This document shows positions 39,947 through 40,013 of a stretch of DNA of 64,000 bases, one piece after another (the stretch's first letter is position 1; every line of letters begins with the position of its first letter). Below the pieces are notes generated by a model. That model did no database searches and was not told the origin of the DNA. It was given only the letters and a program-made list of their open reading frames with translations. The position numbers and the translations under genes are program-made. Location of the stretch: the NCBI RefSeq assembly GCF_024700885.2, contig NZ_CP117016.1; one strand, 5' to 3'. Source of the stretch: Escherichia coli (lineage in GTDB: Bacteria; Pseudomonadota; Gammaproteobacteria; Enterobacterales; Enterobacteriaceae).

Positions 39947-40013
39947 ATTACCTAAAAAACCACATATGGATAGACAACCCATAAATACGAACAGATATTA
40001 CCTTTCAGGTAAT
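39947..40013. promoter_or_regulatory. Shared regulatory module, copy A (ATTACC-N5-AACCACATATG ... ATTACCT-ttc-AGGTAAT)
   Basis: Near-identical blocks recur at 57170-57248. Includes a plus-strand TAGACA-N17-GATATT promoter candidate (39971-39999) abutting the palindrome. Confidence 0.35.

Follow-up and report, generated by a model that had tools for sequence, protein, structure and literature searches.

The DNA analysed here is a 64,000-nucleotide stretch of Escherichia coli MLI114, referred to below as the window, and contains a prophage of the phiV10/epsilon15 type (genus Uetakevirus) whose late genes lie on the minus strand. Two divergent intergenic regions of this prophage, one upstream of the tailspike gene (gap A) and one upstream of the gp3 homologue (gap B), carry the same regulatory module, formed by a block of fixed letters (block 1) and a palindrome. 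The module probably combines two different elements: the palindromes would be operators of the prophage repressor Rep, placed over the -10 hexamers of plus-strand promoters, and block 1 would be the core of a promoter that reads in the late direction. The promoters, the transcription starts, the binding of Rep and the factor acting on block 1 are all deduced from the DNA sequence.

Block 1 has the form TATTACC-N5-AACCACATATG and is found at 39946-39968 and 57169-57191. All block positions of the original prediction were recovered, except that the first block starts at 39946, one base before the 39947 given there. Even when three mismatches are allowed, the pattern occurs exactly twice in the 64 kb, against 0.06 occurrences expected from shuffled sequences. 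Both gaps are AT-rich (63-72%, compared with 50% for the whole window), and a match of 17 positions between them is far beyond chance. Only the motifs are common to the two gaps, while the spacers are unlike in length and sequence. The gaps are thus independent instances of the module, and their origin as duplicates of one segment is ruled out.

The window matches the MLI114 chromosome (NZ_CP117013.1) at 100% identity, and the prophage is inserted at the 3' end of guaA. Both gaps are 92-98% identical to those of phiV10, TL-2011b and ZX5 and about 75% identical to those of epsilon15, SPN1S and SPC32H. The two blocks, whose lack of conservation the original prediction had named as evidence against itself, are conserved in the related prophages.

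Predicted Rep operators in the two gaps

The palindrome of gap A (O_A, ATTACCTTTCAGGTAAT, 39997-40013, without strand) is a perfect ATTACC-N5-GGTAAT with no mismatches, and that of gap B (O_B, ATTACCTTTAAGGTAAC, 57232-57248, also without strand) has a single mismatch, located in an arm. The inner palindromes read ATTACCT-ttc-AGGTAAT at 39997-40013 and TTACCTT-t-AAGGTAA at 57233-57247. At no more than one mismatch, four sites of this kind exist in the window, starting at 39997, 57232, 60443 and 60461, and all are intergenic within the prophage. The last two (60443-60459 and 60461-60477, one mismatch each) stand at the terS boundary, where a direct repeat of the half-site GGTAATA had originally been described. 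The repeat is real, but it consists of the right arms of two complete tandem 17-mers.

The epsilon15 record (GenBank AY150271.2) contains features named 'protein_bind: repressor, lysogeny', which are computational predictions, at seven places: before terS, before gp3, in the gp19/tailspike gap, at three points beside the repressor gene and before a RuvC-like gene. The sequence of these features is ATTACC-N5-GGTAAT. Alignment indicates that O_A is homologous to epsilon15 19895-19911, O_B to 2931-2947 and the terS sites to 12-27, and the epsilon15 gp19/tailspike site (ATTACCTTACAGGTAAT) aligns column for column with 39997-40013. O_A is kept in 79 of 80 relatives fetched via the tailspike N-terminus, and O_B is conserved in 18 diverse phages and prophages. 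The same 17-mer opens nearly every transcription unit of epsilon15, SPC32H and phiV10 and is also present in the immunity region of this prophage. The ATTACC arms are common to all relatives, as far as the Pantoea and Pseudomonas prophages. Heteroimmune relatives with a different operator, which would separate the role of GGTAATA as a Rep half-site from its role as a -10, were absent among the relatives examined out to those prophages. The consensus of the integration host factor IHF (WATCAANNNNTTR), annotated beside the epsilon15 operators, is not matched exactly in gap A or in gap B.

The immunity region, with rep and the cro-like gene, starts just past position 64000, and for this reason rep was out of sight of the original prediction. 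The rep gene is placed about 3 kb beyond the end of the window, in the MLI114 chromosome NZ_CP117013.1, and has operators on both sides; its product does not differ from phiV10 Rep (100% identity), and a comparison with PDB 5D50 matches it to chain A, SPC32H Rep, at E = 4e-42. The Rep proteins of the phiV10 type and of the SPC32H/epsilon15 type share 42% overall identity (rep at 32087-32671 and 33739-34335, respectively, in sequences outside the window), whereas the operator arms are identical and the Cro-like proteins are 76% identical. Their N-terminal helix-turn-helix, including NLVNRW, is conserved, which fits the shared operator half-site despite the low overall identity. Rep is reportedly composed of an N-terminal helix-turn-helix DNA-binding domain, a middle dimerisation domain and a p53-like tetramerisation domain. 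The mechanism of repression by Rep 'has not been extensively characterized' (PMC9986798).

In both gaps the palindrome overlaps the -10 of a plus-strand promoter-like site, as originally proposed. Copy A is TAGACA-N17-GATATT (39971-39999, plus strand), which appears in the promoter-scan list with 9 of 12 matching positions and whose -10 runs into O_A (…ATATTACC). Its GATATT/ATTACC junction is the one seen at PL, at the terS promoter and at the DUF1064-gene promoter, since a -10 ends in the AT of ATTACC at PL (GATTAT followed by TACC), at terS (TACTAT followed by TACC) and at the DUF1064/RuvC gene (TTTAAT followed by TACC). In copy B, the site for the tRNA unit (57211-57239, plus strand) has its -35 TTGACA at 57211-57216 and, after N17, its -10 TACCTT at 57234-57239, inside O_B. 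TACCTT matches the -10 consensus at 3 of 6 positions, and the scan did not call the site. The perfect TTGACA of copy B (GTCAA on the other strand), at 15 nt from ATTACC, is kept in 16 of 18 diverse relatives. The plus-strand promoters in both gaps are plausible, with the operator placed so as to block them.

We conclude that both palindromes are operators of Rep, with the binding predicted here as in the epsilon15 record. The original claim that the palindromes serve one phage-encoded regulator is borne out to this extent, given that the 17-mer fits the epsilon15 repressor sites and that homologues of Rep and of its antirepressor Ant are present. The operator adds one more member to the set of Rep operators of epsilon15/SPC32H and was already predicted by the epsilon15 annotation.

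A proposed late-direction promoter core in block 1

Read on the minus strand, block 1 becomes CATATnnGGTT-N7-TA(A/T)nAn. Copy A (39942-39971, minus strand) is the putative late-promoter core of the tailspike gene, with the box CATATGTGGTT at 39968-39958, the -10-like hexamer TAATAG at 39950-39945 inside GGTAATA and an estimated start near 39938. Copy B (57165-57194, minus strand) is the putative core for gp3 and the portal gene, with the same box at 57191-57181, TGgTAATAA with its -10-like hexamer at 57173-57168, an estimated start near 57161 and a Shine-Dalgarno GGAG at 57154-57151. Sequence matches identify the genes behind the two copies as the tailspike gene (36819-39893, minus strand), which is the late unit of copy A, and the gp3 homologue (56936-57142, minus strand), the first gene of the gp3-portal-capsid late unit of copy B. 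A degenerate third copy of the box, AACCAAATATGGTT, is found upstream of the lysis cassette (35525-35538, minus strand) and has no -10-like hexamer behind it in this prophage. In the relatives, the lysis cassette is preceded by an intact box, in the form CCATATATGGTT-tattgtg-TATAAT or with TATGAT as the hexamer.

The fixed positions of block 1 do not vary in more than 100 relatives. The gap B stretch TATGTGGTTAAATTGGTAATAATTTAA is invariant in 8 reference phages, although its flanks are about 70% identical, and is nearly invariant in ten more prophages (Scandinavium, Kluyvera, Citrobacter, Erwinia, Pantoea, Klebsiella, Pseudomonas). The gap A form reads CATAT-NN-GGTT-N5-GGTAATAGAAT in the late direction. 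The fixed letters of block 1 are kept at 80 of 80 loci, which were fetched through the tailspike protein and so independently of the motif, and variation is confined to the N positions. Exact matches in viral contigs (n = 120) lie before gp3 or the tailspike gene in all but about six cases. Invariance at the late sites is limited to CATAT and GGTT, with drift in the left half of the box.

In all three gaps block 1 shares the strand of the late gene, whose start codon follows 27-53 nt downstream. The common design is a CATATnnGGTT box, seven bases and a -10-like hexamer (TAATAG, TAATAA or TATAAT), with no usable -35, and the distance from box to hexamer is constant across the three promoter classes and 8 phages. 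This combination precedes gp3, the tailspike gene and, in relatives, the lysis cassette, where the hexamer agrees with the consensus, and is not found at terS. The GGTAATA of block 1 can be a -10 as well as a half-site, because at PR of epsilon15 the -10 is supplied by GGTAATAAT of the operator arm. Each late-direction unit that follows an opposite-facing cassette (the tRNA unit, ant, the O-antigen genes) needs a start of its own, and the box sits at that place, which argues for the late-promoter reading. The original prediction had allowed that, on the minus strand, the blocks could be late-promoter or activator sites. For block 1, this alternative fits better than the operator reading.

Several observations weigh against the proposed arrangement. 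The late -10 hexamers are weak (3 of 6 positions), and the consensus promoter scan calls no minus-strand promoter in the gaps. On the plus strand, only the E. coli clade keeps the -35 of copy A, which the Salmonella clade lacks. The lysis-promoter TATAAT of the relatives sits within a predicted 27-pair RNA hairpin, and for this hairpin to form, transcription would have to begin further upstream. With positions of about -67 and -79 relative to the estimated late starts, the operators are too distant for a direct block. Furthermore, versions of the near-palindromic full box AACCATATATGGTT occur in early regions: one follows the operator downstream of cro at a distance of 4 nt, and another occupies the 17-bp PL spacer of Tyrion and BUCT554. 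In all the phages, such a version fills the spacer of the good TTGATT-N17-TTTAAT promoter of the DUF1064/RuvC gene, 4 nt before its operator. A protein bound in such a spacer would act as a repressor. Given these early copies, the box does not belong to late promoters alone and may be a site of repression.

The leader of the lysis cassette in the relatives contains a conserved 27-pair hairpin (24725-24815 in one relative; consensus energy -32 kcal/mol), which starts in the right half of the box and nearly reaches the first lysis gene. The epsilon15 record annotates an RNase III site there. In this prophage the leader (35400-35545) is mostly replaced and the -10-like hexamer is lost. The 5' leader of the tailspike gene (39895-39940, minus strand) has a stem, CCAGATA…TATCTGG, which starts just after the estimated tailspike start and whose 3' arm runs into the Shine-Dalgarno GGAG. 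The arms of this stem covary in relatives (ATCTCC/GGAGAT, GGAT/ATCC, TCCAGA/TCTGGA), in favour of the late-promoter reading, and it was missed by RNAalifold because the alignment shifts.

Another possibility, which we regard as very improbable, is that block 1 acts as RNA on read-through late transcripts, either as a small hairpin (AAUCAUAUGUGGUU) or as a processing site that makes the 5' end of the late mRNA. On the late strand, though not on the opposite one, the gp3 copy can form a 5-bp stem that includes a G·U pair. Predicted RNase III sites are given in the epsilon15 record for the tRNA/gp3 gap and for the lysis-leader region, and the lysis hairpin takes in half of the box. On the other hand, the stem is broken in many relatives (epsilon15, Tyrion, Pseudescherichia), compensatory double changes are absent and the conserved letters reach into the unpaired GGTAATA. 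A search of the whole window against Rfam returned the tRNA as the sole match and no family for block 1, and an RNA element would leave the fixed distance to a DNA operator unexplained.

Other promoter types were also considered. A late promoter of the lambda Q type was rejected, as the 27-53 nt from block 1 to the start codons contain no terminator-like site and no Q-like gene is present among the proteins scanned. A MerR-type promoter fails, having no -35 at 19-20 bp from the -10. Promoters of sigma-54, sigma-28, sigma-32 and ECF factors and the repeats of ArcA, CpxR and NarL were checked by eye and dropped, as was a DnaA box, from which TGTGGTTAA is one mismatch off in copy B only.

Block 1 represents a conserved and apparently undescribed box just upstream of late genes. 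No description of the CATATnnGGTT box, of its fixed spacing or of Uetakevirus late promoters was found in a full-text literature search, which did not reach the primary epsilon15 and SPC32H papers. The ZX5 paper names promoters and no operators.

Coupling of box and operator

Among 76 distinct tailspike-gap sequences, 75 have 28 nt between operator and box. The distance is 40 nt in all 36 distinct gp3-gap sequences and 31 nt in 5 of 5 lysis gaps. The spacers themselves diverge, with a mean identity of 0.57 and a lowest value of 0.18. Measured from centre to centre, operator and box are 40.5, 43.5 and 52.5 bp apart, which corresponds to 3.9, 4.1 and 5.0 helical turns. The collinear arrangement is not due to chance but functional, with distances of 28 and 40 nt that hold in dozens of diverged relatives, in agreement with what had been claimed for it at the outset.

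A constant distance of this kind could reflect the action of a single regulator on both elements. Block 1 would then be a secondary site that Rep binds weakly, made up of ACC-N6-GGT and a GGTAAT half-site. A Rep tetramer would hold the strong operator with one pair of its DNA-binding domains and contact the box 40-52 bp away with the other, occluding the late promoter in the lysogen. The strict spacing favours this idea, and the helical turns put both sites roughly on one helix face. Rep_SPC32H is described as a tetramer that has a p53-like looping domain and a distance of about 100 Å between its DNA-binding ends (PMC9986798; PMC9638917). GGTAAT(A) is the exact operator arm, and at three early positions the box stands exactly 4 nt from an operator. 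Nevertheless, the invariant letters of the box (CATAT, GGTT) never drift to the operator arm (TTACC, GGTAA) in more than 100 sequences, and the left half of the box is poorly symmetric. The box is asymmetric as a whole, with GGTT in place of the GGTAA of the operator. The lysis promoter has the box without GGTAAT, the lysis box of TL-2011b has no operator and the terS operators have no box. In addition, the boxes are identical between phages whose Rep proteins are only 42% identical. The bridging of block 1 by Rep is for us an unlikely explanation, and block 1 does not look like a second operator of the same kind, as the original view would have it.

The module is probably better described as two different elements at a fixed distance, a Rep operator and a late-direction promoter core. 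In the lysogen, Rep bound to the operators over the plus-strand -10 would shut the accessory units, namely the tRNA-Arg unit and the upstream ant promoter. Ant, produced after LexA cleavage, would release the units blocked by Rep. The late promoters, with the box at about -30 to -20, the -10-like hexamer seven bases on and no -35, would restart late transcription after each opposite-facing accessory cassette. A phage protein on the box would decide whether the RNA polymerase can use the late promoter.

Candidate factors acting on the box

The full box AACCATATATGGTT is found at least five times per phage genome at no more than two mismatches, against 0.07-0.17 expected. In this prophage, two of its early copies are joined to operators beyond the end of the window: the composite GGTAATaaaaAACCAAATGTGGTT downstream of cro (9285-9298 of the extracted source segment) and TATGTGGTTtttaATTACC-N5-GGTAAA directly before the DUF1064 gene (about 11255-11288 of the same segment), where the right arm of the operator doubles as a ribosome-binding site.

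This distribution suggests that a second phage regulator could act on the box as a repressor, most plausibly the Cro-like protein (WP_001282459.1), which is encoded beside rep and matches phrog_35 'transcriptional repressor'. Such a protein would sit in promoter spacers, and the copies at the late genes would be brakes and not activator sites. The excess of boxes per genome agrees with this proposal, as does their position in the spacers of the good PL of Tyrion and BUCT554 and of the DUF1064/RuvC-gene promoter in all the phages. The Cro-like protein is also the best-conserved regulator among the phages that share the box, with 76-100% identity. However, a lytic-cycle protein that represses the late structural and lysis promoters makes little biological sense, one half of the 'palindrome' alone is conserved at the late sites, and the PR/PRM region, where Cro would be expected to act, has no box. 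Repression by a second regulator is accordingly given a low probability here.

The gp49-like regulator (60563-60904, phrog_536) was rejected as a box binder, given that the copy of Pectobacterium phage ZF40 is 66% identical and ZF40 has neither box nor operator. A search for homologues of this protein returned only 'hypothetical protein', with no match in PDB or NCBIfam. The Cro-like, PerC-like and AlpA-like proteins are the remaining candidates. In the best reading, the box would be bound either by a bridging Rep tetramer or by some early protein.

A more specific proposal can be put forward, tentatively, as it is possible rather than probable. CATATnnGGTT/AACCATATATGGTT would be the site of an early Uetakevirus protein that acts as an early-to-late switch. 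On the one hand, this protein would occlude the early promoters (PL, DUF1064/RuvC). On the other hand, it would stand in for the absent -35 of the three late restart promoters, gated by the helically phased upstream Rep tetramer at a fixed distance. If this is true, with Rep operators at every unit start, the genome of about 40 kb would be organised as seven or more separately gated units, unlike the two early operons and the one antiterminated late operon of lambda.

Plus-strand units of the two gaps

In gap A, the plus strand carries ant (40089-40346), which encodes an antirepressor of the SPC32H type with 85 aa (PDB 5D50 chain E 'Anti-repressor protein', E = 3.3e-47; phrog_450 and phrog_1760), an identity that was out of reach of the original prediction. 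The predicted ant promoter (40027-40069, plus strand) has the -35 TGGATA at 40027-40032, the -10 TACTGT at 40050-40055 and the SOS box TACTGTATAAATATACAGTT at 40050-40069. The LexA pattern CTGT-N8-ACAG is found as CTGTATAAATATACAG at 40052-40067. The conserved TGGATA-N17-TACTGT puts the -10 of ant inside the left arm of the LexA box, and TGCTGGATAG together with the LexA box is conserved in 8 phages. In SPC32H, a LexA site is said to overlap the ant promoter, according to Kim & Ryu 2013. The arrangement of ant and LexA, as read from the letters, matches the one published for SPC32H. Ant, which inactivates the repressor, is produced once LexA has been cleaved (review, PMC7380047). The best reading of TAGACA-N17-GATATT is an upstream promoter that would read into ant, with O_A over its -10.

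In gap B, the product of the plus-strand unit is a tRNA-Arg(UCU) (57570-57646, plus strand), detected by ARAGORN and by Rfam (RF00005, 71.7 bits). The leader between promoter and tRNA-Arg (57247-57569, plus strand, about 320 nt) is moderately structured (-118.7 kcal/mol, z = -2.7) and has no Rfam match; the epsilon15 record annotates an RNase III site in the equivalent stretch. An open reading frame at 57576-57791 (minus strand), opposite the tRNA-Arg gene and the terminators, is annotated as a protein in phiV10 and TL-2011b (PhiV10p04 equivalent) and is probably not a real gene.

The terS region

The control region of terS (60443-60484, minus strand) contains an extended -10, TGgTACTAT, at 60484-60476, followed by the tandem operators at 60477-60461 and 60459-60443 and by the ATG at 60441. 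No box is present at terS in the phages, where a terminator and an extended -10, conserved as TGnTACTAT or TGnTAGTAT, are accompanied by two operators that abut the ATG. The annotated start at 60522 (TTG; MLI114 and phiV10) would put the terminator-like hairpin, the extended -10 and both Rep operators inside the coding region (60439-60522, minus strand). The ATG at 60441 (MPAEPKTYKRK…), which matches the starts of epsilon15, SPC32H and TL-2011b, is the likelier start.

The last gene before terS encodes the gp49-like 'transcriptional regulator' (phrog_536). A perfect 12-bp palindrome, GTGACATGTCAC, is present at 40370-40381 and at 60555-60566 (2 copies, against 0.15 expected at no more than one mismatch). 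The first copy adjoins the terminator that separates ant from the end of the long late operon, and the second lies over the gp49-like stop codon. In relatives this palindrome is kept at three places, each beside a terminator that ends a late-direction unit. ZF40, which has only the gp49-like gene in common, carries three perfect copies. GTGACATGTCAC is probably the gp49-like regulator's own site.

Significance and comparison with other phage control systems

Prophages of the phiV10/epsilon15 type are common in E. coli, Salmonella, Klebsiella and Enterobacter and carry O-antigen-modifying genes, and the phages are in use as reporter and typing phages. Their Rep/Ant/LexA induction switch is solved structurally, whereas the turn-on of the late genes is not described in the literature reached. 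The present analysis yields a map of Rep sites outside the immunity region, of three expected late-promoter starts and of one conserved 11-base box, to which the missing late regulator would bind. If block 1 were only a weak auxiliary Rep site, the result would be an ordinary one, with the repressor silencing every unit directly. The finding is sound, and the module is mostly an ordinary kind of phage regulation.

The closest precedent for the operators is the epsilon15 record, in which the same 17-mer is present at the same three late-region positions and in clusters that flank rep. In contrast to epsilon15, the sites here belong to an E. coli prophage of the phiV10 type with a Rep of 42% overall identity, O_B has one arm mismatch and there is no counterpart of the IHF sites. 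The work on the SPC32H Rep-Ant-LexA switch (Kim & Ryu 2013; Kim et al. 2016; PDB 5D50, 5D4Z) shares with this prophage the homologues of Ant and Rep, the LexA box over the ant promoter and the tetrameric repressor family. As far as checked, it covers the switch itself and not the late-region operators or the CATATnnGGTT box.

The system also resembles the lambda CI repressor with its OL/OR operators and looping, in having a multi-operator prophage repressor, operators over the -10, an oligomerisation domain able to bridge and a spacing near integral helical turns. Lambda, however, has two operator clusters and one Q-antiterminated late promoter, while here operators mark seven or more unit starts, singly or in pairs, and those of late units are among them. 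Moreover, induction proceeds via an antirepressor and not via cleavage of the repressor.

In its logic the box resembles the sites of Mu C/Mor and P2 Ogr and the T4 MotA box, which are likewise shared by several late promoters with a -10 and no -35 before morphogenesis and lysis operons. The sequence of the box is unrelated to these, and here the box is also found in early promoters. Its estimated position (-33 to -20) differs from those of Mu C (about -43) and Ogr (about -55), and the closest is the T4 MotA box (-30). Finally, phi29 p4 and P2 Cox are examples of one small DNA-binding protein that represses early promoters and activates late ones, and by analogy the two types of position of the box would fit such a protein. 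Block 1 is a modestly new regulatory motif of a familiar kind, joined to an operator half that is already explained.

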